64,000 nucleotides of DNA from Bradyrhizobiaceae bacterium (lineage in GTDB: Bacteria > Bacteroidota > Ignavibacteria > Kapaibacteriales > Kapaibacteriaceae). Shown piece by piece: positions 1 to 29,964 of the stretch (position 1 is the stretch's first letter; each line of letters starts with the position of its first letter). The stretch lies in the NCBI GenBank assembly GCA_024103135.1, contig JAGFIZ010000047.1:107-64106 (forward strand), written 5' to 3'. Under the pieces are notes generated by a model, which did not search any database, was not told the origin of the DNA, and saw only the letters and a list, made by a program, of their open reading frames with translations. Made by a program: the position numbers and the translations under genes.

Positions 1-2536
1 CATCACGCGTCGCAATGAGTGTGTAGGTCGTGGTCTCCCGAGGGTTTGCTATCGGAGCAAGTGCCGTTGAGTCATCCAGCCCCGTAGATGGGCTCCATAC
101 GTACGAGTCTGCAACACCCGTAGCCGAAAGTCGCGTAGCACTTCCAAGGCAGATACGCTTGACGGGGCCTGCCTTTACATCTGGAGCTGGGAGAATGTTT
201 ACATGGACGGTATCGGAAGAGGTGCATGTGCCAGCACCATGTCCCACAAGCACGTAGGTTGTGCTCACTAGTGGTGCTACGGTCAAGGTAGCTGCGGTGT
301 CGACCTGCTGACCATCAGTCGTATACCATTCATAGCGCTGCGCACTTCCAGAGGCTCTCAACAATGCCGTCGAGCCCTCGCAGATCGAGGTGTCTGTAGA
401 TGCCTGAACTACTGGACCCTGCATTGCAGAAATCACCAACGAATCGGTTGAACTACAACCACCACTTTCAGCGAAGACCTTTACCACGGTTGGCCCAGTG
501 ATAGTCACGACCGTTTCGTTGGTGGTTGATGGCATAACGCCAACACCACTCCATGTGAAGGACGATCCGCCACCCGTTGCTCGAACGGTGATTTGCTGTC
601 CTGTACAGGCCTCCGCCGGACCATCGATGATGATGGTGAACGTTGGTTCGACGTATACCACCACCGTATCGGTAACGACGCAACTACCCTTCGTCATCGT
701 TACCACAAACTCCGTTGTTTGCGTCGGCTTAGCAACTGGTGATGCCGATGATGGGTTGTCCACCAAGTTCTCCGGCGACCAATGGTACATGTCGGCACCA
801 GATGCATGGAGCGTTGCCGATCCACCAGGACAGATTGTAGCATCGGGTCCACCAGTCAGTTTGCTCACTGCTACGGTAACTACGGCTGTGTCCTTGCAGC
901 CATCTGCGCTCGTGCCAACAACGGTGTACGTAGACGTGCTAGCAATCGTGGCAATCGGATCGGCAATGTTGGGATCACTCAAGCCATGCGAAGGCGACCA
1001 ACGATAACTGGCTGCACCGGAGGCATGGAGTTGGATTGGCACGTTCGGACATGTAGAGAGCGACGTTGGTACGGAGAGTTTTGGCTCCGGTAACACGTCA
1101 ATCTCGATCTCGATGGTATCGTCGCCATACATATTCGAAACCGTCAACGATGCACGATGCAGTCCAGGTGTGTTAAAGCACACAACGGGATTTGGTAGAC
1201 GTGGACTCGATGGTGTACCCGTAGGAATGTTCCAACTCCACGAGTTAATCAGGCCTTGGCTCTCATCTACAAGTTGGATGCATTCATTTACGCAGACACG
1301 TACATTTCGAGTGAATGCAACAGGCATCTTACAAGCTTGGTCGCCAGGGACATGGGATGTAAAGTTCCATGCAAGGAAGAGCGGCAAGCCGGATCTGCAG
1401 GTACCCGTAAGTGTTATCGCTGTGTCGACGATGGTTGGTAAGGGGGCTGAAGGATCAGGGATCGACGCGAGATGTTTTTCGTTGGGTCTGCCAATGTAGA
1501 TGGCCTTGTCGGGAGCAAGTTGCATCGGTGTAAAAGCCGATGATCCCTTCAAGAAACCAACGTTCTGTCTTGAAGCAATGATGACGTCGCTGTCATACGT
1601 CTTCAAGTCGAACCTCGTGATATAGACACCTTCAGTTGGCGTTTGCACCGTTGAGGCAATGTAGAGATACCGACTATCGGCAGAGAATGCAGCACCATAG
1701 TGCGAAAGCGACCGATCTGATCCAAAGAGGTCAATACCGTTGAAGAGTGTCCCGGTGGAACGCGTAAAACGATAAAGCTGCGCTGTGCCTGAAGGCGAGG
1801 TGATGATGATGAACTCGCCATTGGGCGAGGCATGCATCTGTCCTGCATCTCGAATCTCTGCATCAGGGATCCCGTTTGATACAACTGGAGTCAAGGACAA
1901 ACCACTCGCCGTAAGGTGATAGGCGTTGAATACGGAGATTGCTCGTCTCCGAACAACAATCCACCAACCCGTGCCATCACAGTCACGAGTTGCGGTTACG
2001 TGTTCGGTTATGTCGTCCGTGACAAACGAGTTCTTTACGATAACATCACCAAATCCGACGTCCCTTCGCATGTCGACCATGCTGTAGGTAAGACACATAC
2101 ATCGGTCGCCGGGGTCTACTGCCGTGATTGGTGCTGGATTGAAGATGGCATAGAGATCATCACTACCAGGCCAAGGGAGGATGAGGGCACTCTGACTCGT
2201 TGATCGTTCACCCTGAAGTCCATTGCCATTTGGCATGATCTGATGAAAGGAATTACGAACTTCATGACCGTCGGTGTAAAACAACAACTTGCCCGTAACA
2301 GGGTGCGACTGAACAGCACACCCTTCGTCGGTGTCGATACGTCCATCGGTCAAGGGCTCTACAGTCCCATTGGCAAACGTGATACCGGCATTGCTGCCGA
2401 AGTACCAATTCCACGCACTGCGTTGAGCATACACATCTGCCGAAGGCATTGCGAGCCAGCATGCAAGAATCAGACATTCTGCAGCGAGCGCAATCCCTAA
2501 CCTCCCCCCACTGAGGTATGAACGCCAAGGTGCCAT
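1..2536 (-). CDS. Large T9SS/gliding-type cell-surface adhesin-like protein, C-terminally truncated by the window edge. It has a signal peptide, an N-terminal beta-propeller-like region, and tandem ~75-aa Cys-pair Ig/PKD-like repeats.
   Basis: ATG at 2536 on the minus strand, with no stop down to position 1 (the ORF is not in the supplied track because it is open-ended). The N-terminus MAPWRSYLSGGRLGIALAAECLILACWLAMPSADVYAQ is signal-peptide-like. Downstream repeats carry a conserved motif: ICPGGSATLHASGADMYHWSP, ICEGSTALLRASGSAQRYEWY, ICLGSATRLSATGVADSYVWSP, CTGQQITVRATGGGSSFTWSG. Confidence 0.6.
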   Translation of the reverse strand, partial: MAPWRSYLSGGRLGIALAAECLILACWLAMPSADVYAQRSAWNWYFGSNAGITFANGTVEPLTDGRIDTDEGCAVQSHPVTGKLLFYTDGHEVRNSFHQIMPNGNGLQGERSTSQSALILPWPGSDDLYAIFNPAPITAVDPGDRCMCLTYSMVDMRRDVGFGDVIVKNSFVTDDITEHVTATRDCDGTGWWIVVRRRAISVFNAYHLTASGLSLTPVVSNGIPDAEIRDAGQMHASPNGEFIIITSPSGTAQLYRFTRSTGTLFNGIDLFGSDRSLSHYGAAFSADSRYLYIASTVQTPTEGVYITRFDLKTYDSDVIIASRQNVGFLKGSSAFTPMQLAPDKAIYIGRPNEKHLASIPDPSAPLPTIVDTAITLTGTCRSGLPLFLAWNFTSHVPGDQACKMPVAFTRNVRVCVNECIQLVDESQGLINSWSWNIPTGTPSSPRLPNPVVCFNTPGLHRASLTVSNMYGDDTIEIEIDVLPEPKLSVPTSLSTCPNVPIQLHASGAASYRWSPSHGLSDPNIADPIATIASTSTYTVVGTSADGCKDTAVVTVAVSKLTGGPDATICPGGSATLHASGADMYHWSPENLVDNPSSASPVAKPTQTTEFVVTMTKGSCVVTDTVVVYVEPTFTIIIDGPAEACTGQQITVRATGGGSSFTWSGVGVMPSTTNETVVTITGPTVVKVFAESGGCSSTDSLVISAMQGPVVQASTDTSICEGSTALLRASGSAQRYEWYTTDGQQVDTAATLTVAPLVSTTYVLVGHGAGTCTSSDTVHVNILPAPDVKAGPVKRICLGSATRLSATGVADSYVWSPSTGLDDSTALAPIANPRETTTYTLIATRD

Positions 2537-2581
2537 GTAGTAACCTGAAAAATAGCATACTTACCGACACAAATCACGGTT

Positions 2582-3391
2582 TTGATCCGAAATGTGAGGG
2601 GGCTGACCCATGGTCGTCCGCATAGCCCTAGTTTTGCATGCGAAAACGCAGATTTTTCCTCTCAACAAGGGGCTCCTGACTTGCTTAAACAAGCACGTGT
2701 TCTGGTAGTCGACGACGAAGCCGACATCGTTGATCTGATATCGTACAATCTCAAAAAGGCAGGCTTTGACGTGCTCACGGCCTCCAATGGTACCGAGGCA
2801 CTTGCCATTGCTAGCAAGGAGCTTCCCGACCTGGTTGTACTTGATGTGATGATGCCTGGCATGAATGGCTTCGAAGTCTGTAAGGTGCTGCGTAGTCAGG
2901 AGTCAACCTCGCCCATTGCAACGGTGTTCTTAACAGCAAAGACTCGTGAGGTGGATCAGCTAAAGGGACTTGAGCTTGGTGCCGATGATTACGTTCCAAA
3001 GCCAGTGAGTCCACGTATTCTTGTCGCCCGCATTCAGAACATCCTACGTCGCCGCGAGGAACACACCCGTCAAGCCACTAGCGTCGAGACAAGCCTCCTT
3101 GGCGGAGAGATGGTGGCAAACCGACAGAACTATACGATCCGCATTGCCGATAAGGAAGTGTTCTTCCCGAAGAAGGAGTTCGAGCTCGTCGTTCTGTTGG
3201 CTTCTAATCCTGGGAAGGTTTACTCCCGCGATGAGTTGCTTGCCAAGGTTTGGGGACAGTCCGTGCAGGTCGTTGATCGTACGGTCGACGTGCACGTGTC
3301 CAAGGTGAGGGAAAAGCTCGGAACCATGGCACAGCGACTTGAGACTGTCAAGGGGGCTGGGTACAGGTTTACCTCCACATCTGAAAAGTAA
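2582..3391 (+). CDS. OmpR/PhoB-family response regulator (REC + winged-helix).
   Basis: VLVVDDEADIV...LVVLDVMMPGMNGFEV...LTAKT...LGADDYVPKPVSPRILVARIQ, followed by a C-terminal wHTH (VDVHVSKVREKLG). The true start is probably the in-frame TTG near 2681 (LKQARVLVVDDE). Confidence 0.85.
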   Translation: MIRNVRGLTHGRPHSPSFACENADFSSQQGAPDLLKQARVLVVDDEADIVDLISYNLKKAGFDVLTASNGTEALAIASKELPDLVVLDVMMPGMNGFEVCKVLRSQESTSPIATVFLTAKTREVDQLKGLELGADDYVPKPVSPRILVARIQNILRRREEHTRQATSVETSLLGGEMVANRQNYTIRIADKEVFFPKKEFELVVLLASNPGKVYSRDELLAKVWGQSVQVVDRTVDVHVSKVREKLGTMAQRLETVKGAGYRFTSTSEK

Positions 3392-3396
3392 GAGCC

Positions 3397-4476
3397 ATGT
3401 CAGCACAACCAACCGCACCGTTTTACAAGAACCCGGTTCTTTACTTCACCGCTGGCATCCTGGGCTTGTTGCTGGTATTCGTCATCCTGATTTCTATCTA
3501 CGAACCACAAGCCACCCACGAACTGGGGTTGCTACGCTTTGTACTATTAGGTCTGGGCATTGCCTTGTTAGGTTGGGCAATCCATACCCATCATGTGCGT
3601 ACGCTCGAGAAGGCATTGTATCATCCGTTGCAACGGCTCACCGATAGTACCTATGCAATTGCAGAAGGGGCAACGAGTGGACGTGTTGAGTTGGGTCCTA
3701 CTACCGATAGCGACGTACTCCTGGCAAGTGATGCCGTAAACAAGCTGGCGCAAAAGGCATCACGTGACATTGCAGAATACACCCGACTCGAACGTGTTCG
3801 GAGTGAGTTCCTAGGCAATGTTTCTCATGAGCTGCGTACACCAGTGTTTAGTGTGCAGGGATATTTGGAGACGTTGCTTGATGGCGCAGTCGACGATCCA
3901 AGCGTGAATCGGCAGTTCCTCGAGAAGGCCTACCATAACACTAAGCGACTCAACACGCTGTTGAACGACTTGATTGACATATCGCGAATCGAGAGCGGTG
4001 AATTACGGTTGAGCTTTCGTTACTTCGATATGTGCGAGGTCCTCAAGGAGGTTGTGCAATCAATGGAGCACATTGCCTCTCAGCATTCGATAGCCATTGT
4101 GCTCGAGCTACCGAGTGATGACAACTGCAGTGTACTTGGCGATAAGGAGCGCCTTGTGCAGGTGATGACGAACCTCATCGACAATGCACTCAAATACAAT
4201 ACTGAACATGGAACGGTGACGGTGAGCGCAAAGGTGGCGAAGGGTACGATGCACGTAAGTGTATCGGACACGGGCGTTGGTATTGCAGCCGACCAGCTTG
4301 ACAGGATCTTCGAACGCTTCTTCAGAGTTGGCGAAGACCGATCACGCTCCATTGGCGGTTCGGGCCTTGGTCTAGCAATCGTCAAACATATTCTCGAAGC
4401 CCACCAGGCACCGGTTCACGTCTCTAGCGTCGAAGGTAAGGGGACAACCATCAGCTTTGAGTTGAAGACTGCCTAG
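3397..4476 (+). CDS. Sensor histidine kinase with two N-terminal TM helices and a tiny periplasmic loop (intramembrane-sensing type). It is PhoR-like in its H-box (SHELRTPVFSVQGYLETLLDG).
   Basis: HisKA H-box SHELRTP, and the N/G1/G2 boxes (NLIDNALKYN, DTGVGI, GGSGLGLAIVK). It lies 5 nt downstream of the response regulator. Its stop overlaps the stop of the convergent 4473..9239 gene. Confidence 0.85.
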   Translation: MSAQPTAPFYKNPVLYFTAGILGLLLVFVILISIYEPQATHELGLLRFVLLGLGIALLGWAIHTHHVRTLEKALYHPLQRLTDSTYAIAEGATSGRVELGPTTDSDVLLASDAVNKLAQKASRDIAEYTRLERVRSEFLGNVSHELRTPVFSVQGYLETLLDGAVDDPSVNRQFLEKAYHNTKRLNTLLNDLIDISRIESGELRLSFRYFDMCEVLKEVVQSMEHIASQHSIAIVLELPSDDNCSVLGDKERLVQVMTNLIDNALKYNTEHGTVTVSAKVAKGTMHVSVSDTGVGIAADQLDRIFERFFRVGEDRSRSIGGSGLGLAIVKHILEAHQAPVHVSSVEGKGTTISFELKTA

Positions 4477-7400
4477 TTCACCACAACGATGGTTGTTTGA
4501 ATTGGCGTCGTTGACGTGTGTGCTCGAACAACATAAACACCACTGGAAAGCCCCCTGACATCAACGATGAGTGAATGATCTCGTTGATACCACGGTACCA
4601 CTATCTCATTGCCAGCAAGGGTTTGAACAGTGCATGAGGTAATGGGTGCATCGTTTGAGAGGCCAACGAGCACGTGGTCGGATGCCGGTTGCGGATACAC
4701 ACTCGTTGTATGTGGTTCCTGTAGATCAACATCCGCGGTGTATTCCCAAGTAACGTCATCAACGTACAACCCATCGGAGTGCTTGGTCAGGTTCGACCTG
4801 AATCGCAGCCGAAGCTGAAGCGTGTCGGGACTTATGTAGTCAAACACGTGCTGACCTGCACGCCAAGCGTCGGCCCCCTTGGTAGTATCTGCCCAACGTG
4901 GATCAACGCTAGAATTCCACCATGCAATGGTCTGCCAATCATGTGATTGTTCGCCGCTACGCTTAACCTCCAGATATGCAGTGTCAGTCGGATCGACAAA
5001 CGCAGCAACACGCCAGCGTAGAACAATGGCATTGTTCTCTGGAATCAAACCAGGCTGTTGAAATGGGTAGAGGAGCACGGTATCGCGCGCGGAACGTGTG
5101 TAGTCCTGGTTGGGCGATTCAGTAAGGGAGGTAGGTGGACTGTACGACAAGCGCGAGTCCAGGCCCCATTGTCCGCCCATCACATAATAATTCGGCATCG
5201 TATCAAAGGTCTCTTGTCTCCATTCCATGTTTCCTGCAAATACCATCATGCTGTCAGAGAAAGGACTCATGTTCTTGTCGGCATCACGGATTGCAGCACG
5301 AACCTTCCAGAAGCCATCTTCCGGGGCAGCAACGACAAAGGAAAGTGTCTTGCCTGTATCTGATGCGGACACGGCTATCACCGCCGTATCAGCACCACGT
5401 GCGATGAGCACCTGTGCTAGGTTCACGAGTGGAGTTTCTCCATCAAGCCTGAAGCGTGGCATGGTTAACGTAACTCGATGGTATGCCACATCGCTGGAGT
5501 CATAACCCATAACGTTAACCAAGGTGGGTGACCCTGGAAGTTTTGACCCACCTGCAAAGGCCGATGCAGTGCGAGTTGCAGACGTGTCGGTGCCATCCTC
5601 CACATGTAGGGTGTAGGTGTACTCACGGTACGAGGTGAGAGCAGTGTCCCGATAGCTCGTTGTGGCAACCGGCAACGTCGCGATGCGCATGCCATCACGG
5701 AATAAGGCGTACTGTGCGGCAGGGGAAAGGGGCTGACCAAACGTGCGAGATGAAACTGCACTCCAGCCAACATCGATACTCGTTGGCATCGCAGCAATGG
5801 TGTTGGCCCACATCGTGTCTGGAGCTCTCGGCGAGCGTGTGTTGACGATGGCGGTGTACACGTCACTGTCAACAGTGTTGGTGCTGGTTGTATTTCGCAT
5901 GTCTACCCACGATGGGTAGACAATGCCGTTGTAGAAGTCGCAACCCGAATAGTCTCCGGCAAAGGTCCTGCCACTAAATGGATTGTTGCGCAAATCATTG
6001 TCGGCATCACCGACCCTCCTGTCCGTCCAGGTTTGTCCGCCGTCAGTCGAGAGACTCACATAACAGTTAACAAGGATGTTACTCTCGTCGTCACGACTAT
6101 CAAAGTACATCACGGCAACATCGCCAGTAGTAGGATCGATGGCTATCCACGGCCAGAACTGATCATTGGATGTGTCGGAATGCACGACCCTTGGTGTCGA
6201 CCACGTAGTGCCATTGTCGGCTGAGTACGATGAGTAGACGTTTGGTGGATTGTCTGCCGACCAGACAAGGTACAGTCTTCCGTTGCGTGCTCCACCCGTA
6301 TTGTCGACCGACAGGCTTGGATACGCTTCTGCACGAACGGTACCCTTTACTCTTGAATTCACCGTTCCTTCGATCTCTAGCTTCTCGCCGAACGGATTGT
6401 AGGTGTGCAGAATACGTGGCTCTGAAAATGTAACTCCGCCATCTGTGCTTCTAGCGTATCGAACGGCATTCTCCGTGCCGCTATTCCATACTACGTGGAC
6501 GCTACCGTCGGGCCCCGTCCGAGCAAGTGGAAAGCTTTGTCCAAACGTTGCATGCTCACTCGTATGTGGGAAGCGAGCACCTACGGCGATCGGTACGCTC
6601 CAACTTAGCCCCCTATCGGTACTGCGCGAGATAACGATCTGCGTGCTACTGTCGGCATTGATCACACGTTTCCACGGGATGTACAGATTGCCACGGAAGG
6701 GTGATGAAGAAGCCGTGTCGGCATGGACGTAATACTTGTCTTCGAAAGCACTGTCGGCCGTCTGCTTGCCAAGGTGTTCGATGACGGGAATGTGGGTAGG
6801 CCCCCAGGTAAGTCCGCCATCATCAGTAATGGAGATGTAGACGCCATTCTCGCCGAACTGAGGAGTCTGTCCAACGTTAAAGCCACCATAACACAAGTAG
6901 CCACGTCCCTGATGATCAAAGCAAACGGATGGATCGTTGGTGCTTCGCCAGCCTTCATGTGGGTAACCCAACTTGACGTTATGCCAGGTATTGGCGCCGT
7001 CGGTCGAGTAATACGCCCATGTCTGACTGTTGGCTCGATAGTCTACTGCACTACCAATAAGATTGCGAGGATTGAGTGGGTTGACTGCGATCGAACTTTC
7101 ATTCTGCATTGGTTGCTGATCCTGTTCTTCGGCAATCAGCGACACGTTCTCAAACTGCGACGCATACCACGACAATCCTTGAACGAATGGCACCTTGGGC
7201 CAGTCGGGATGCAGATTCGTAGGGTCAGGTGTGGGATGAGCACGCTCCATTGACTGCTTACGTGCCCTATGATCATTGTCCGATGCTTTGGCAACGGAAC
7301 CAGACAGCACCACCAACCCAATTACAATGCCCAGTCCAAGGTCACGCGCCAGGTTTGTCCAATGTCTGTGATGCAACATGTCGCGCAGCTTTCGTGTGAT

Positions 7401-9239
7401 TGCAGGAGCCTCTCGATTTCCATGTCGTTCCAGAATCAATGCATTGCATGCAGTGAGCACGTGCATCGACGATGAGGTCTTTGTGTTGATCCGTGCCGCT
7501 TCTTGAAGCATCGACATTGCCTGTTCAACATTGTTCTGTGCCTGGGCAACCGTGGCTAGCCCGTTCAAGACCAGCGCACGTAATGCCGGTAGGTTGGTAG
7601 AGAGCACCTCGGCATCTTTCAATAGTTGCTCTGCTTCGGAGACCATGCCAATCGAGACGCATGCTCGTGCTTCGAGACATAACAGCGTTATACGTTCGGT
7701 TGTCGTAAGTGCCGGGTGGTTCCGCGCGCGCTGGGTATGCAGTTGTGCTTCGGTGGGCTGACCCATGATGAGTGCATCGCAGGCAAGTCTAATTGACTCG
7801 TCGGCATCGACAGTGGCACCGTCAGCAACGACTACAGTTGACGGCTGTCCATCTACGTCAACAGGAGCTGTATCAACATCGGCTTCAGGCCAATTGACGG
7901 CAAGGGCGGGGTCGACTTCCTTTAACATCCGCTGCGTTATCTCGACGTCTTCTGCAATGTGACCATGCGCAGCAATGATGGCTGCCAACTGCTCTCGTGT
8001 TGCCTGCAAATCAGCTGCATCGTGTTCCTTGGTAAGGATCTCTGCAATTCGATGATGAAGGGCCTTACGTTCCTCATACGAAACGTAATGATAGAAGTAG
8101 GTGAAGGCTAGATCTGATGTAAAGCGATAGGTCGTTGTCTTGATGTTGTATCTCGTACGAACGCCAATGCTCTCGATCATACCAGTGCGTTGCTGTAGTC
8201 TGCGCAAGCTTCTGGCAGCACTTACCACATCAGTGTTCGTTAGTGCGGCAAACAGAAAGGCAGAGAACTCTCTACCCTCGATGGCACCCATTGCAAGACT
8301 AATCGCATCATCCTCTTGAATTTCATGGAGTAGGACGTCGGTAGACGGGTGTGCCCCGAGTTGGACGCCAGACGTTAGTATGCTATCCGTTCGAAGGTGC
8401 CCATCCGACGATATCTCGCCCATTCGCTCCAGGTAACGGACGTATTCGACCATCACGCCAGGGAGTCCACCGCACCGTTCGTTAAGTAAGCCAACTTGTT
8501 CCTCTGTGAGCTTCAGGGAAGGGGCTATGGCATGGAGTACAGATTCCGCGGTAGCGCTGTCGATTGAATCAAGGACAATGTGTTGCGTAGTGCTGGCAAG
8601 CTCAGTGGGCAATGCCGTCAGCGCAAGATTATGTTCACGTGCCAAGCGTTGATCAAATGCCCACACGATGAGCAGCTTGTTCTGTGGGTTTGCTGCAATA
8701 CGCTTTAGCACTTCGAGACTTTGTGGGTCTGACCAGTGTGCTGCATCTACCAACAACACGAACGGTGTGTGAGCCGCAACTCCTTCAAGTGCTTCGACGC
8801 ATTCTTCGACGGCAGCTTTCCGTTTTTGAAGCAGGGCAGCAGTCTCGCGTTTGTATTCGGTAACGTCCTGCCGAACTGCCTTGATTGCATAAAAGATGTC
8901 GCCAGCGATCGGCAATGATGCCAGCAGACTCATACCAATGTTCAGTGCGAGACGCTTCTTGGCAACCTGTTCACCATTCTGATACAGACTCTCGATAGCT
9001 AGCCCAAAGGGCTGAAGGGGTTGTACGCTTGCTACATTCAAGGTGCCAATGGGTTGCCTGCAGTCAACCCTCACGGCTTGATCGCCAAGGTGCTTCTGCA
9101 AGGTATCCAGCAAGAAACTCTTGCCACTGCCCGGCTCACCCGAAACGAATACAACACTGCCAATGCCCTTCTGCCACTGGGTAATGAGTGCATTGAGCGT
9201 AGCACTCTGAGTGGGTCTTCCTGGGATGACGATGCTCAC
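4473..9239 (-). CDS. 1588-aa multidomain protein. The order is an N-terminal P-loop STAND/AAA_16-type NTPase and TPR-like region (~aa 1-620), one hydrophobic TM/signal-like segment (aa ~634-649), a BNR/Asp-box six-bladed beta-propeller (sialidase/sortilin-like), Fn3/Ig-like beta domains, and a T9SS C-terminal sorting domain.
   Basis: Walker A VSGEPGSGKS and VLLVDAAHWSDPQSLEVL (DxxHWxD, typical of AAA_16). TPR-like helices around LTTTERITLLCLEARACVSIGMVSEAEQLL. Hydrophobic segment LGLGIVIGLVVLSGSVAKA. Asp-boxes YYSTDGANTW, ISITDDGGLTW, SRSTDRGLSW, ARSTDGGVTF, SADNGTTW, LSTDGGQTW. The C-terminus SVYPQPASDHVLVGLS...LAGNEIVV...GLSSGVYVVRAHT...TTIVVVN matches the T9SS CTD pattern (YPNPA...GVYxV). 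Confidence 0.7.
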   Translation of the reverse strand: MSIVIPGRPTQSATLNALITQWQKGIGSVVFVSGEPGSGKSFLLDTLQKHLGDQAVRVDCRQPIGTLNVASVQPLQPFGLAIESLYQNGEQVAKKRLALNIGMSLLASLPIAGDIFYAIKAVRQDVTEYKRETAALLQKRKAAVEECVEALEGVAAHTPFVLLVDAAHWSDPQSLEVLKRIAANPQNKLLIVWAFDQRLAREHNLALTALPTELASTTQHIVLDSIDSATAESVLHAIAPSLKLTEEQVGLLNERCGGLPGVMVEYVRYLERMGEISSDGHLRTDSILTSGVQLGAHPSTDVLLHEIQEDDAISLAMGAIEGREFSAFLFAALTNTDVVSAARSLRRLQQRTGMIESIGVRTRYNIKTTTYRFTSDLAFTYFYHYVSYEERKALHHRIAEILTKEHDAADLQATREQLAAIIAAHGHIAEDVEITQRMLKEVDPALAVNWPEADVDTAPVDVDGQPSTVVVADGATVDADESIRLACDALIMGQPTEAQLHTQRARNHPALTTTERITLLCLEARACVSIGMVSEAEQLLKDAEVLSTNLPALRALVLNGLATVAQAQNNVEQAMSMLQEAARINTKTSSSMHVLTACNALILERHGNREAPAITRKLRDMLHHRHWTNLARDLGLGIVIGLVVLSGSVAKASDNDHRARKQSMERAHPTPDPTNLHPDWPKVPFVQGLSWYASQFENVSLIAEEQDQQPMQNESSIAVNPLNPRNLIGSAVDYRANSQTWAYYSTDGANTWHNVKLGYPHEGWRSTNDPSVCFDHQGRGYLCYGGFNVGQTPQFGENGVYISITDDGGLTWGPTHIPVIEHLGKQTADSAFEDKYYVHADTASSSPFRGNLYIPWKRVINADSSTQIVISRSTDRGLSWSVPIAVGARFPHTSEHATFGQSFPLARTGPDGSVHVVWNSGTENAVRYARSTDGGVTFSEPRILHTYNPFGEKLEIEGTVNSRVKGTVRAEAYPSLSVDNTGGARNGRLYLVWSADNPPNVYSSYSADNGTTWSTPRVVHSDTSNDQFWPWIAIDPTTGDVAVMYFDSRDDESNILVNCYVSLSTDGGQTWTDRRVGDADNDLRNNPFSGRTFAGDYSGCDFYNGIVYPSWVDMRNTTSTNTVDSDVYTAIVNTRSPRAPDTMWANTIAAMPTSIDVGWSAVSSRTFGQPLSPAAQYALFRDGMRIATLPVATTSYRDTALTSYREYTYTLHVEDGTDTSATRTASAFAGGSKLPGSPTLVNVMGYDSSDVAYHRVTLTMPRFRLDGETPLVNLAQVLIARGADTAVIAVSASDTGKTLSFVVAAPEDGFWKVRAAIRDADKNMSPFSDSMMVFAGNMEWRQETFDTMPNYYVMGGQWGLDSRLSYSPPTSLTESPNQDYTRSARDTVLLYPFQQPGLIPENNAIVLRWRVAAFVDPTDTAYLEVKRSGEQSHDWQTIAWWNSSVDPRWADTTKGADAWRAGQHVFDYISPDTLQLRLRFRSNLTKHSDGLYVDDVTWEYTADVDLQEPHTTSVYPQPASDHVLVGLSNDAPITSCTVQTLAGNEIVVPWYQRDHSLIVDVRGLSSGVYVVRAHTSTTPIQTTIVVVN

Positions 9240-10342
9240 TTCTTGTCCCCACTATGTTGTCTCGGAAGCGTTAGCAGAGCGCGGATCAATTGCTCGGTAT
9301 CAGCCCTTGAGTCAAAGTCATGGTATGCCGTGGCAGCTACCTGCGTGCCAGCATTCTCCTCAGTTCTACCGTACATCAAGATTGTGGCATAGGTAATCAG
9401 AAGCATGAACTCGAGTCCTAGGGCACTGAGTACGAAACTTGGATCCGTTGCAGGCAAGAATTTTAGTCCTCTGATCCCAATCACAATGATCAGTACGGCA
9501 GCACCCATGTACACAAGACCAAGGATCACATTGCTATACCGGTCGGTGAAGTATTCACGCATGTAAAACTTTACGGCATCGTGCATACGAAGCAGTCTTG
9601 AGGCGCCAGACGAGTTTTTCCAGAGCAAGGCGCGTTGCATGAGCTCCAGTTCGCTGTACCCAATCTTGAATCGATCTGCCAGGTCGTGCAAGCGTCGTGT
9701 ATCAGCACTGGCAATCTCGCGGGCGAGACTCTGCACCTCCTGGTTGCTATGCTCTCCAAACTGCTGTACGGCCAATCGGTCAAGTGCCAGGAGAATCTCG
9801 CGGTCGATCTTCTGTCGTAACAGTCCTTTGGGAAGTAGGACGGTGATCAAGGCGGCCAGGATCGTCCCGCCAACAAATACCAGCGGAGCTAGAGCAATGA
9901 TTGGTTTGAAGATGTATTCGGCATGCGGACGGGACGACTCTGCAAGGCGGGGGTCGGCCAGAGCCCAGGTCGTCATCGGACCCGTTGTAACAAGCTCGGT
10001 AGCTCTGTTCTCGGCAACCTGGTACGTAACAATCGTCCCATCGCTGATGACTTCACTGCGAAGAAAGCCAGAGAAGAACATGTTCAACAGCGGCGATGCT
10101 ATGCCAACAAAAAGAAAACCCATACAGAGCAGACTAAGCACTACGAACGAAAGTCGCTGTGTAGTACTATGGGTGCTTTGCTCAACAACTTGTGATCTGG
10201 AAGTAGCAGTCATGACTAAAGTTAGGAACAATGCCGCTCTTGGAGTCATCATGGCGGACAAGAATTGTTCAAGCACAAGTGAGAGGTATCCTTGTCCGCC
10301 GCTCAATACGGCCGCGTAGTCCAAAGCCCCCTCCCAAATCAA
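9236..10342 (-). CDS. Conserved membrane protein with four predicted TM helices and a ~100-aa cytoplasmic loop. It is translationally coupled to the 4473..9239 gene.
   Basis: TTG start in the track. TM candidates are LSFVVLSLLCMGFLFVGIASPLL, IIALAPLVFVGGTILAALITVLL, VILGLVYMGAAVLIIVIGI and FVLSALGLEFMLLITYATILMY. Its stop overlaps the start of the downstream large gene by 4 nt. I recognise no family. Confidence 0.5.
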   Translation of the reverse strand: MIWEGALDYAAVLSGGQGYLSLVLEQFLSAMMTPRAALFLTLVMTATSRSQVVEQSTHSTTQRLSFVVLSLLCMGFLFVGIASPLLNMFFSGFLRSEVISDGTIVTYQVAENRATELVTTGPMTTWALADPRLAESSRPHAEYIFKPIIALAPLVFVGGTILAALITVLLPKGLLRQKIDREILLALDRLAVQQFGEHSNQEVQSLAREIASADTRRLHDLADRFKIGYSELELMQRALLWKNSSGASRLLRMHDAVKFYMREYFTDRYSNVILGLVYMGAAVLIIVIGIRGLKFLPATDPSFVLSALGLEFMLLITYATILMYGRTEENAGTQVAATAYHDFDSRADTEQLIRALLTLPRQHSGDKK

Positions 10343-21266: not shown

Positions 21267-23192
21267 CTACTTCTTGTCGTCGTCGACTACGGTGTAGTCT
21301 GCGTCTTCAACAGTAGACCCATCGCTTGCTGTGCTGTCCTGAGCATTACCTGCTTGTCCTGCAGCATCGGCACCTGCTTGCGCACCATCCTGTGATGCCT
21401 GTTGGTACATCTTGGTTGATGCCTCGCTCCACAATTCATTCAATGCATCCATTGCTGCACGAATGTCTGTTGGATTGTTCTTCGTTGCATCGGCAAGACG
21501 ATCCTTAGCCTTGATGATGCGATCCTTGGTGTCGAGATCCAACTTGTCTTCGAACTCCTTGAGTTGCTTCTCGGTGCTGTATACCAATGCATCTGCTTGG
21601 TTGCGGAGCTCGATTTCTTCCTTGCGTTTCTTGTCGTCTGCGGCATGATCTTGAGCTTCACGCTTCATGCGCTCAACTTCTGTCTTGTCTAGACCACTGG
21701 AACCAGTGATGCGAATGTTCTGCTCCTTACCGCTTGCCTTGTCCTTTGCCGTTACACTCAGGATACCATTGGCATCGATGTCGAACGTTACTTCGATCTG
21801 TGGGATACCACGTGGTGCTGGTGGAATGCCGTCAAGATGGAACTTGCCGAGAGTCTTGTTGTCGGCAGCCATTGGACGCTCGCCTTGGAGGACGTGGATC
21901 TCGACGCTTGGCTGGTTGTCGCTTGCAGTAGAGAAGGTCTCCGACTTGCGGTGTGGAATGGTTGTGTTTGAAGGAATCATCTGCGTCATCACACCACCCA
22001 TGGTTTCGATACCCAAGGATAGTGGCGTCACGTCAAGCAGCAACACGTCCTTCACATCGCCTGCCAACACGCCGCCTTGAATTGCAGCACCAACGGCAAC
22101 AACCTCGTCGGGGTTCACGCCGCGTGATGGATCCTTACCGAAGAAGTTCTTCACGATCTCCTGAATCTTAGGAATACGTGTCGAGCCCCCTACCAAAATC
22201 ACCTCGTCGATTTGCGATGGTGTAAGATTGGCATCGCGGAGTGCGATTTCGAGTGGCTTCAGACTTCTGTCGAACAGATCGGCGCAGAGCTTCTCGAATG
22301 TTGCTCGAGTGATGTTCACGTTCAGGTGCTTCGGACCGTCCTGTGTTGCCGTAATGAATGGCAGATTAACGTCGGTCTGCAGCATCTGGCTGAGCTCGAT
22401 CTTGGCCTTCTCTGCAGCTTCACGCAGACGCTGAAGGGCCATCGGATCCTTGCGAAGGTCGATCCCTTCTTGCTTCTGGAATTCTGCTGCAAGATGGTCA
22501 ATGAGTCGCTGGTCGAAGTTATCTCCACCAAGGTGTGTATCGCCATTGGTGCTCTTTACTTCGAAGACGCCTTCACCGATTTCCAGTACCGAGATGTCGA
22601 ACGTACCACCACCAAGGTCATACACGGCCACGGTCTGGTTCTGTCCCTTCTTGTCGAGACCATAAGCAAGAGCTGCTGCCGTTGGCTCGTTGATGATTCG
22701 GCGGACAGTGAGTCCGGCGATTTCGCCAGCATCCTTTGTTGCCTGACGTTGAGCATCGTTGAAGTATGCAGGAACGGTAACCACCGCTTCGGTGATCTTC
22801 TCGCCCAGATAATCTTCTGCCGTCTGCTTCATCTTTTGCAGAATCATGGCGCTGATCTCTGGTGGCGAATAGTGCCTACCATCGATGTCAACACGAGCAG
22901 TGTTGTTTTCGCCTGCAACGACCTTGTAGGGGACGGCTTTTGCTTCGTCGGTGACTTCGTTCATCTGCCGACCCATGAAGCGCTTGATCGAGTAGACGGT
23001 GTTGTGTGGGTTGGTTACGGCCTGACGTTTTGCGGCCTGACCCACGAGGCGCTCACCGCTCTTGGTGAACGCTACGACCGAGGGCGTGGTACGCAAGCCT
23101 TCTGCGCTTGCGATCACGATTGGCTGAGCCCCCTCCATGACCGACACAACGGAGTTCGTTGTGCCAAGGTCGATTCCAATAATTTTTCCCAT
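21267..23192 (-). CDS. dnaK: Molecular chaperone DnaK (Hsp70).
   Basis: [18 protein letters not shown]..., [13 protein letters not shown], and full-length similarity to Hsp70. Confidence 0.97.
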
Positions 23193-28497: not shown

Positions 28498-29964
28498 ATG
28501 AGCATGCTTGTTGCCATACTCTTGGGCCTGATACAGGGTCTCACAGAGTTTATTCCCATCAGCAGTACGGCACACCTGACGCTTGCAGGCCATCTTCTTG
28601 GTGTAATCGACCCACTCCATCCGGAACGGTGGACGGCATTCATTGCAACCATTCAGATGGGCACGTTGGCTGCAGTGTTTGTGTACTTCCGACGTGACAT
28701 CATGGGCATGACAAGAGCATTTGTTTCCGAAGTACTCCAACCATGGAAGATTCCACCATCGCAGTGGAGTGCCGATGCCCGTATGGGCGTCCTCGTATGC
28801 CTTGGCACAATTCCCATTGTTACTATCGGTTTGGCATTCAAGAAGTTGATCGAGGGTCCACTGACGAAGGATCCCATTGTCATTGCCATCGGACTCGTTG
28901 TAGTAGGCATTCTCTTGTGGTATGCAGAGCGTAAGGCACGCTTTGACCGAGGACTTGACCAGCTTCGCATTACCGACGCATTGTTGATTGGCCTCGCTCA
29001 GGTTATGGCACTTGTCCCCGGTGCCTCGCGTAGCGGTTCCACCATCATGGCAGGTTTGTTTAGGGGGCTGAACAGAGAAGATGCCGCTCGCTTTTCATTC
29101 TTGCTTTCAATTCCAGCAGTGGCTGGTGCAGGAGTGCTTGAATTTGCCGGTGAACTCAAGCACCTATCGTGGTCCGAGGGAGGTCCGCAATTACTTGCAG
29201 CAACCATCGCTGCCCTGCTGAGTGGTTATGCATCGATTGCCTTCCTGCTCAGGTTTCTAAGAACACGATCGGTGAACGTCTTTGTGGTTTATCGACTGCT
29301 TCTCGGTGGTGTTCTTCTTGCCACAGCTTGCACACCACAGTCGCAAGTGCAGGATTCGGCTTCGATCGTTGATTCAGGTTATGCGTCAAGCACTCAGCCT
29401 ACCATCGCCCAAGCAGGCGATTCCGTCCACGCAACGATCACCAGCAAGGTACGCGTACGTACGAGCATGGGATCGTTTGACATTGGTCTATATGGGAACG
29501 ACGCCCCGCTTACGGTCGAGAACTTCGTCGAGCTCGTAAAACGTCGGTATTACGACAGGATCCTGATTCACAGGGTTGTACCCGACTTTGTCATCCAGAT
29601 GGGCGATCCAAAGACGCGTGACGTGCACGCACGAGCGGAGTGGGGAAAGGGCGGCATGACGGCCTCGGGAAGCCCCCTTCCAGAAGAAATTGACGAAGCA
29701 TCCATCCCCATGAAAATCGGCTATATCCGTGGAACGGTGGCCATGGCACGGAAAACGGAGAGCGGTACCGGAACCAGTCAATTTTTTATTTGTTTGGACG
29801 GAGCCGCTGGACTTCCACCGCAATACACGATTTTTGGAACTGTTGTAAACGGGATGGATGTTGTCCGGGCCATTTCGGAGGTAGATGTCGAGCCAGGTCC
29901 ACTGGGTATAATCGACTCTAGTCCGCGAAAACCGATTGTCATTCGTTCTATACGACTGTTGTAA
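28498..29964 (+). CDS. uppP: Undecaprenyl-diphosphatase (UppP/BacA) fused in frame to a C-terminal cyclophilin-type peptidyl-prolyl isomerase.
   Basis: aa 1-~275 carry the UppP motifs (GLTEFIPISSTAHL, PGASRSG). The last helix ends in a lipobox-like LLATAC. An S/T-rich linker follows, then a cyclophilin (FHRVVPDFVIQMGDP, QFFICL). Confidence 0.75.
   Translation: MSMLVAILLGLIQGLTEFIPISSTAHLTLAGHLLGVIDPLHPERWTAFIATIQMGTLAAVFVYFRRDIMGMTRAFVSEVLQPWKIPPSQWSADARMGVLVCLGTIPIVTIGLAFKKLIEGPLTKDPIVIAIGLVVVGILLWYAERKARFDRGLDQLRITDALLIGLAQVMALVPGASRSGSTIMAGLFRGLNREDAARFSFLLSIPAVAGAGVLEFAGELKHLSWSEGGPQLLAATIAALLSGYASIAFLLRFLRTRSVNVFVVYRLLLGGVLLATACTPQSQVQDSASIVDSGYASSTQPTIAQAGDSVHATITSKVRVRTSMGSFDIGLYGNDAPLTVENFVELVKRRYYDRILIHRVVPDFVIQMGDPKTRDVHARAEWGKGGMTASGSPLPEEIDEASIPMKIGYIRGTVAMARKTESGTGTSQFFICLDGAAGLPPQYTIFGTVVNGMDVVRAISEVDVEPGPLGIIDSSPRKPIVIRSIRLL

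Follow-up and report, generated by a model that had tools for sequence, protein, structure and literature searches.

How can a cytoplasmic STAND ATPase and a protein destined for secretion share one polypeptide chain? The question is raised by a single open reading frame (ORF) in a 64,000-nucleotide stretch of DNA, here called the window, from contig JAGFIZ010000047.1 of a genome deposited as a Bradyrhizobiaceae bacterium and placed by GTDB in the Kapaibacteriaceae. The ORF lies at 4473..9239 on the minus strand, starts with GTG and runs for 1588 codons. An earlier examination of this DNA, made from the sequence alone and called here the sequence-only reading, had described the same ORF, without giving its strand, as encoding an ATPase, TPR-like helices, one hydrophobic segment, a beta-propeller, Fn3/Ig-like domains and the C-terminal tail of a cargo of the type IX secretion system (T9SS). 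We confirm the single 1588-codon ORF, and the domain matches bear out this anatomy. In our judgment, with a probability of roughly 0.65, the ORF represents a fusion of two neighboring, translationally coupled genes, the products of which are separated again by cleavage of a signal peptide. The architecture is a recurrent evolutionary accident and not a new kind of membrane receptor.

Fused, split and cargo-only loci

The fused ORF is not confined to the window. A search of 5.8 billion proteins yielded 12 clusters of full-length homologues (1584-1612 amino acids, 51-99% identity, 99-100% coverage) from independent assemblies, in which a 99%-identical fused protein is also found, and the same single ORF is present in five species-level genomes. 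In the alignment of the fused homologues, both halves are well conserved, and the Walker A motif, the Walker B aspartate, the Asp boxes and the motifs of the C-terminal sorting domain are invariant. When two fused loci, L006 and L007, are compared, the ratio of nonsynonymous to synonymous substitution rates (dN/dS) comes to 0.058 in the ATPase part and 0.059 in the cargo part; this is the only pair on which the estimate rests because dS is saturated, and dN/dS unusable, in the more divergent fused pairs. Purifying selection acts on both halves within a fused lineage.

We surveyed related loci by ORF calling and hidden Markov models of the N-terminal and C-terminal parts, taking one genome per species, and obtained 39 loci, all in metagenome-assembled genomes (MAGs) of the Kapabacteria/Ignavibacteria type. 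The sequence-only reading had suggested comparing fused with split versions of the locus, and both exist. A single ORF of about 1600 amino acids is found in five genomes (L001, L002, L006, L007 and L009), in addition to the window. In 16 genomes, an ATPase gene of 644-661 codons is followed directly by a cargo gene of about 950 codons; two longer ATPase ORFs, of 682 (L022) and 929 (L026) amino acids, are artefacts of choosing the longest start. The remaining 18 genomes have the cargo gene and no ATPase within 10 kb. A protein search returned 37 further clusters of stand-alone ATPases (599-666 amino acids), with the split layout on two of their contigs. Two atypical features were seen at L026, where a rhodanese-like gene on the opposite strand (3659-5032, minus) is inserted between ATPase and cargo and the ATPase terminates in '...DLLKSSE' instead of the usual '...DLxL'; atypical ends also occur in a related group of stand-alone ATPases (P0144, P0146-P0148 and P0151). 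Several records carry titles such as 'uncultured Hyphomicrobiales', 'Chitinophaga pinensis', 'Patescibacteria group' and 'Melioribacter roseus P3M-2' (L001, L002, L007, L009, L012, L019, L027), and these labels on Kapabacteria-type MAGs are probably wrong.

The junctions indicate how the fused form arose. The unfused ATPases (644-666 amino acids) terminate in '...W..LRADLxL*', whereas the fused proteins continue past that same W..L..DL tail straight into the hydrophobic region. At the split loci, the stop of the ATPase gene and the start of the cargo gene overlap as ATGA (L010, L033) or TAATG (L021) or are separated by a spacer of 12-54 nucleotides, and at two of these loci, L003 and L005, the genes are kept apart by no more than one in-frame stop, an arrangement that, as far as the junction DNA tells, is classic translational coupling. 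An ancestral two-gene locus that lost a stop codon was one of the explanations offered by the sequence-only reading, and as an account of the origin of the ORF it holds: the genes are adjacent and separate in 16 of the 39 loci, and the ATPase stop falls exactly where the fused chain enters the signal peptide.

Two types of junction can be distinguished among the fused proteins. In the first, '(D/E)(L/I)GL' leads directly into the hydrophobic region (the window, L001, L009, L002 and relatives); in the second, DL is followed by five residues, a methionine and the hydrophobic region, so that the initiator methionine of the cargo is kept (L006, L007, P0010-12). Furthermore, the fused and split forms are interleaved in the neighbor-joining trees of each half. 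Given the two junction types and this interleaving in both trees, there were at least two fusion events, or fused genes have come apart again.

The internal signal peptide and the fate of the fused chain

The hydrophobic segment, residues 634-652 (LGLGIVIGLVVLSGSVAKA; 7284..7340, minus), is the only membrane-grade hydrophobic 19-mer in the ORF (Kyte-Doolittle 1.97) and aligns with the N-terminal signal peptides of the unfused cargo proteins. The latter carry a classical signal peptide of 18-24 residues that ends in a small residue followed by Q (small|Q) in 30 of 32 cases and lies 8-10 residues ahead of the conserved motif HERHMERAHPTP; the hydrophobic region of the fused proteins stands at the same distance from HERHMERAHPTP. 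In the window protein, the predicted signal peptidase I site is A652|S653, in the small-x-small motif VAKA|SD. Among the 12 fused homologues, the site reads A|Q or G|Q in nine, and a small residue occupies position −1 in all. In Bacteroidetes, signal peptidase I sites typically have glutamine at +1, and the Q-value of Ignavibacterium album is 77% (PMC5837995). Because of the shared position relative to HERHMERAHPTP and the retained site of the small|Q type, the segment is, on this alignment, the cargo's own signal peptide now lying in the middle of the chain. The Sec signal of the fused precursor is thus internal and not N-terminal as in the 32 unfused cargo orthologues.

These observations can be arranged into a simple model. 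As the comparison of loci shows, the ancestral layout in the Kapabacteria-type lineage was dnaK, a gene for a membrane protein that we call X, an effector-less STAND ATPase with TPR repeats, a T9SS cargo and a convergent kinase/regulator pair, with the stop of the ATPase and the start of the cargo overlapping or only a few bases apart. Loss of the ATPase stop, at least twice independently, joined the ATPase in frame with the cargo and turned the N-terminal Sec signal peptide of the latter into an internal hydrophobic segment. In the fused chain, the 630-residue ATPase part would fold in the cytoplasm, the internal signal sequence would insert in the N-in/C-out orientation via the signal recognition particle (SRP) and Sec, and the C-terminal part of about 935 residues would be translocated, with signal peptidase I cutting at the retained small-x-small site (A652|S653 in the window protein, A|Q in most fused homologues). 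The ATPase would remain tethered at the inner membrane through what had been the signal peptide, beside its likely partner X; the other product would be a free periplasmic propeller protein, exported by the T9SS via its C-terminal domain as in the unfused relatives. If the ATPase normally acts at the membrane together with X, such a tether would do no harm. Because the signal peptide would separate the halves again, the fusion would be tolerated without creating any new signaling connection.

The sequence-only reading had considered the chain to be topologically paradoxical, on the ground that a large cytoplasmic N-terminal domain could not be reconciled with export through Sec. This objection falls away because N-in/C-out insertion, whether by a signal anchor or by an internal signal peptide, lets the C-terminal 935 residues reach the periplasm via Sec. 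Insertion of a hydrophobic signal in this orientation by SRP and Sec after a large cytoplasmic domain is how bitopic type II membrane proteins arise. The retention of the T9SS tail in the fused forms would imply continued selection for export across the outer membrane, for which the cargo would have to be released from the inner membrane. Cleavage by signal peptidase I is favored because the c-region has been kept, the glutamine at +1 is typical of the group and the sorting domain has been retained. Taking these lines of evidence together, cleavage at the predicted site A652|S653, leaving the ATPase tethered by its C-terminus and the T9SS cargo in its normal form, is the most likely fate of the chain.

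Several observations weigh against this interpretation. The residue at +1 is S, not Q, in the window protein, and three fused homologues have less canonical residues at −3/+1. The uncharged stretch in the fused forms comprises 13-23 residues, which would also be enough for a stable membrane anchor. In-frame methionines at or before the hydrophobic region (M621 in the window, MKM in L002, the cargo methionine in L006 and L007) imply that a separately initiated cargo could coexist with the full-length chain. Finally, neighbor-joining trees of such divergent sequences leave the number of fusion events unfixed, and fusion followed by re-splitting is equally possible.

Among the alternatives, the one that survives best holds that two products are made by internal initiation, at M621 or at the retained methionine of the cargo, with full-length read-through a minor or additional product; we consider it possible but not likely. 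M621 is a candidate start in the window (ATG at 7377..7379, minus, its first base at 7379 as the sequence-only reading had placed it) and heads a plausible n-region and hydrophobic region. In L002, P0008 and P0009, MKM stands ahead of the hydrophobic segment, in L006, L007 and P0010-12 the original initiator methionine of the cargo has been kept over substantial divergence, and the ancestral genes were translationally coupled. However, M621 is not conserved among the fused homologues, so that initiation there cannot be regarded as a conserved feature of the group, and in L001 and L009 the only in-frame candidates ahead of the hydrophobic region are TTG and GTG codons, ATG being absent. Moreover, once the stop is gone, elongating ribosomes always make the full-length chain, which Sec and signal peptidase would still have to deal with. 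The lineage probably uses few Shine-Dalgarno sites.

An uncleaved bitopic receptor appears distinctly unlikely. Under this scenario, which the sequence-only reading had put forward as a new transmembrane STAND receptor wired to a propeller, the segment is a permanent signal anchor and the periplasmic propeller senses a ligand and controls oligomerization of the cytoplasmic nucleotide-binding oligomerization domain (NOD), for outside-in signaling or defense. The single-ORF architecture is indeed kept under purifying selection, the uncharged stretch reaches 17-23 residues in several fused forms, the STAND part has no effector domain of its own, and the glutamine at +1 has been lost in the window protein. 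Nevertheless, homology links the segment to a cleavable signal peptide, the small −1 residue is present in every fused form and A|Q or G|Q in most, and the fused and split states interconvert. In 16 genomes, the halves are encoded as separate proteins, and each is also found without the other, the cargo without the ATPase in 18 genomes and the ATPase with X but without the cargo in distant lineages; there was therefore no ancestral functional coupling that required a covalent link. A T9SS tail held at the inner membrane by a linker of about 50 residues would also be useless, and yet the tail is retained. Improbable, too, is the broader proposition that the chain is either such a bitopic STAND receptor or a selected 'polyprotein' that delivers a tethered ATPase and a T9SS cargo in a 1:1 ratio at the same Sec site; if the polyprotein version were true, a cytoplasmic factor with a role in the biogenesis of T9SS cargo would come to light.

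Finally, an error in sequencing or assembly, or a functionless read-through of recent date on the way to a pseudogene, can effectively be excluded: although the locus comes from metagenome-type data and comprises two genes in most relatives, the artefact or pseudo-fusion that the sequence-only reading had kept in view is contradicted by a 99%-identical fused protein from independent assemblies, by 12 fused clusters with identity down to 51% and fused versions in many genomes with at least two origins, by purifying selection at a dN/dS of about 0.06 for each half between two fused genomes, and by the invariance of the Walker A, Asp box and sorting-domain motifs.

An architecture as startling as a cytoplasmic ATPase joined to a T9SS cargo can thus arise trivially from packed, translationally coupled genes, which calls for caution when surveys of domain architecture take single ORFs as evidence of "transmembrane STAND sensors". 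With fused and unfused orthologues that can be set side by side, the locus is also a recurrent natural test case for the processing by Bacteroidota-type Sec and signal peptidase I of an internal signal peptide behind a folded domain of 630 residues, and the same set of orthologues bears on the maturation of T9SS cargo from such a precursor. To our knowledge, no fusion protein that ends in a T9SS cargo has been described, and a limited literature search found none.

A close parallel is fbcH of Bradyrhizobium japonicum, the product of which, a cytochrome b-c1 precursor, is cleaved at a signal peptide within the chain; a literature search for fbcH or another precedent of an internal signal peptide turned up only papers on viral polyproteins. 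Like the window ORF, fbcH is a single ORF, derived from two genes that are separate in relatives, with an internal Sec-type signal and a signal peptidase I site between a cytoplasm-facing or membrane part and a translocated part. Unlike the window ORF, the N-terminal part of which is a large soluble ATPase, it starts with a polytopic membrane protein, and both of its products belong to one complex, whereas the two products that the window ORF would yield by the predicted cleavage need not work together.

The ATPase and the secreted cargo

The N-terminal half is built around a NOD module, residues 1 to ~440 (7920..9239, minus), composed of a nucleotide-binding domain (NBD), a helical domain and a winged-helix domain, as indicated by a Pfam AAA_16 match (residues 6-191, E = 2e-17, above the curated cutoff) and an AlphaFold2 model. 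The Walker A motif GEPGSGKS (residues 34-41; 9117-9140, minus) and the Walker B motif LLVDAA (residues 161-166; 8742-8759, minus) can be read from the translation; G39, K40 and D165 are invariant in both alignments, and S41 is invariant among the fused proteins. In the window copy, the second acidic residue of Walker B is replaced by alanine, so that ATP hydrolysis may be impaired. The sequence LLVDAAHW, with D-A, is shared by the window protein and P0003/P0004, and most homologues have D-D or D-G.

The NOD module is followed by TPR-like helical repeats, a putative sensor or arm, at residues 479-633 (7341..7805, minus), identified by helices in the model and sub-threshold TPR matches. The region ends in the conserved tail W..L..DLGL, the point at which the unfused ATPases terminate. 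In a structure search with the model of residues 1-660 (predicted local distance difference test, pLDDT, 79), the top match in the Protein Data Bank (PDB) was the STAND-TPR protein PH0952 (6mfv_A, E = 1.6e-10), followed by ORC/Cdc6 and Avs5. The match to 6mfv_A extends over 632 aligned columns with low TM-scores (0.31) and therefore supports the fold class but not orthology. On this model, an NBD-helical-winged-helix core followed by a repeat sensor is the architecture of a STAND NTPase. Searched by sequence, the ATPase half matched no PDB chain.

A conserved hydrophobic stretch at residues 101-119 (Kyte-Doolittle 1.62) was considered as a membrane hairpin and rejected, as it lies between Walker A and Walker B, where STAND NBDs carry the initiator-specific motif (ISM) helices; in PH0952, these helices touch the arm and the sensor (PMC6468293). 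No effector domain was found on the NOD, AAA_16 beginning at residue 6 and nothing extra preceding the signal peptide, and the unfused ATPase orthologues likewise consist of NOD and TPR only; the absence of a DNA-binding domain pointed out by the sequence-only reading accords with this. Effector domains of the DNA-binding kind are present in PH0952 and MalT (PMC6468293). The window ATPase thus shares with STAND-TPR NTPases such as MalT and PH0952 (6mfv) the AAA_16 family membership, the P-loop NBD with ISM helices, the helical and winged-helix domains and the TPR-like repeats. It differs from them in the missing effector, the short repeat region (about 150 residues), the D-A form of Walker B and the fact that ATPases of this type are always encoded behind the membrane protein X. 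A known defense system receives no support, because PADLOC gave only a weak mad8 match (E = 1.6e-4) for the ATPase and nothing for X. In several genomes, paralogous effector-less AAA_16-TPR (MalT-like) ATPases are encoded a few kilobases away (L010, 2336-4675, minus; L021/L022, ~2400-5240, minus; L045, 192-1628, minus), without an adjacent X homologue or T9SS cargo.

The secreted half opens, near the predicted mature N-terminus, with a conserved motif of which the part MERAHPTP comprises residues 664-671 (7227..7250, minus) and in which the residues E-A-H-P-T-P are invariant across the 12 fused proteins. The full motif, H-E-R-H-M-E-R-A-H-P-T-P (residues ~660-671; 7227-7262, minus), lies 8-10 residues past the predicted cleavage site; most cargo orthologues have it, in each of the three locus classes, and it is more divergent in the basal cargo-only loci and in the window copy. 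It may be a metal-binding or maturation motif.

Next comes a six-bladed BNR/Asp-box beta-propeller, residues ~700-1135 (5835..7142, minus), identified by a Pfam BNR_2 match (residues 863-1076, E = 4e-12, above the curated cutoff), six Asp boxes and a fold match. Five of the Asp boxes, at residues 745, 873, 931, 1006 and 1064, fit S-x-[DN]-x-[GA]-x-x-[WF], and the sixth, ITDDGGLTW, was read off the translation. The beta strands of the AlphaFold2 model then indicate FN3/Ig-like domains (residues ~1140-1335) and a beta-sandwich, jelly-roll-like domain (residues ~1340-1505; together 4725..5822, minus). The cargo model has a pLDDT of 67.5, with low confidence at residues 1338-1402, and its top Foldseek match is the sialidase of Micromonospora viridifaciens (1wcq, E = 3e-14, 13% identity). 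The overall architecture resembles that of 1wcq/2bzd, in which a propeller is combined with an Ig domain and a carbohydrate-binding module. As in these GH33 sialidases, a six-bladed Asp-box propeller is followed by Ig-like and beta-sandwich domains; unlike them, the window cargo, at 12-13% identity, lacks the (F/Y)RIP motif, no FRIP or other RIP-type motif being present in residues 656-1140. By sequence, the cargo half matched no PDB chain. By predicted fold, the cargo is thus a sialidase-like propeller without the FRIP motif.

The protein ends in a T9SS type A C-terminal sorting domain, residues 1514-1588 (4476..4700, minus). When the whole protein was scanned, the tail fell just under the cutoffs (TIGR04183, 22.4 against 23, residues 1514-1586; PF18962, 20.3 against 27), whereas the last 100 residues alone scored 28.4 bits against the TIGR04183 cutoff of 23. 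The same model matches 36 of 37 homologous tails at E<0.01, so that the sorting domain proposed in the sequence-only reading is upheld; in addition, PF18962 is found among precomputed matches in nine of the 12 fused clusters. In the cargo model, the tail (model residues 860-931) consists entirely of beta strands with a pLDDT of 83-91, in keeping with a small beta-sandwich. Compared with T9SS type A cargo (TIGR04183/PF18962), such as the RgpB gingipain and other surface proteins of Bacteroidota, the window protein has the same sorting domain of about 75 residues at the extreme C-terminus, with the P-x-P-A, G-x-Y and terminal h-x-h-x-R motifs, a multi-domain, beta-rich passenger and, in its orthologues, the glutamine at +1 after the Sec signal peptide. 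It differs in that its Sec signal is internal, behind a cytoplasmic ATPase of 633 residues. A possible T9SS has been reported in Ignavibacteriae (PMC5837995), and a literature search for Kapabacteria and type IX secretion returned one irrelevant paper only. No T9SS machinery was matched among the approximately 20 window ORFs scanned with Pfam, the window not having been surveyed exhaustively; the related contigs encode other Por_Secre_tail proteins.

Neighboring genes and the separate occurrence of the halves

Directly upstream of the fused ORF lies the gene for X (9236..10213, minus), a protein of about 325 residues with four hydrophobic segments, the TGA stop of which overlaps the GTG start of the fused ORF as GTGA. 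X has no credible Pfam family, even at loose thresholds, and no PADLOC match. Each of the 21 loci with an ATPase gene has the gene for X immediately ahead of it, and X is a probable operon partner of the ATPase. Convergent to the fused ORF is a two-component system (2582..4476, plus), consisting of an OmpR-type response regulator (2582-3391) and a histidine kinase (3397-4476), which is syntenic with the cargo in the fused, the split and most cargo-only loci. The conserved order is dnaK, X, ATPase, cargo, the convergent histidine kinase and response regulator, and a large PKD/Ig_7 protein; in the window, dnaK lies at 21267-23192 (minus).

The two halves also occur apart. In one cargo-only clade (L011-L020, L039), dnaK ends about 30-150 nucleotides ahead of the cargo ORF, and X and the ATPase are cleanly absent. 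Conversely, a profile search of 1.84 billion representatives recovered ATPase orthologues of 680-700 residues in more distant lineages, and at two of the four distant loci that were looked up (L046 and L048) the ATPase follows an X homologue (L046, 5997-6911; L048, 5994-7004; 35-36% identity, E = 1e-61 to 1e-68) without a cargo gene downstream. X and the ATPase thus form an older pair, and the cargo is an independent neighbor that became fused. A role of the ATPase as a dedicated cargo factor was considered and is disfavored, given X and the ATPase without cargo in L046 and L048 and the cargo without them in 18 genomes, a distribution which suggests that the two halves are not necessarily functionally tied. 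The order at L046 (2456-9064) is hsp20-hsp20-dnaK-X-ATPase, and the synteny hints at a link of X and the ATPase to a heat-shock locus. A conserved, uncharacterized pair near dnaK, the membrane protein X and an effector-less STAND ATPase, is thereby brought to light. More distant X homologues are adjoined by rmlC, not by the ATPase.

Two further ORFs of the window may be mentioned. At 2-2536 (minus), an ORF cut off by the edge of the window encodes a large PKD/Ig_7 (CHU_C-associated) protein that is about 1170 residues long in relatives. Its synteny with the cargo and the two-component system extends to most of the related loci, many of the cargo-only type among them, and it may be a further protein that is secreted or displayed at the surface by the T9SS. 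A 488-residue ORF at 28498-29964 (plus) combines BacA/UppP (undecaprenyl-diphosphatase, residues 6-271) with a cyclophilin-type peptidyl-prolyl isomerase (residues 318-485) and constitutes a second membrane-plus-soluble fusion within the window.

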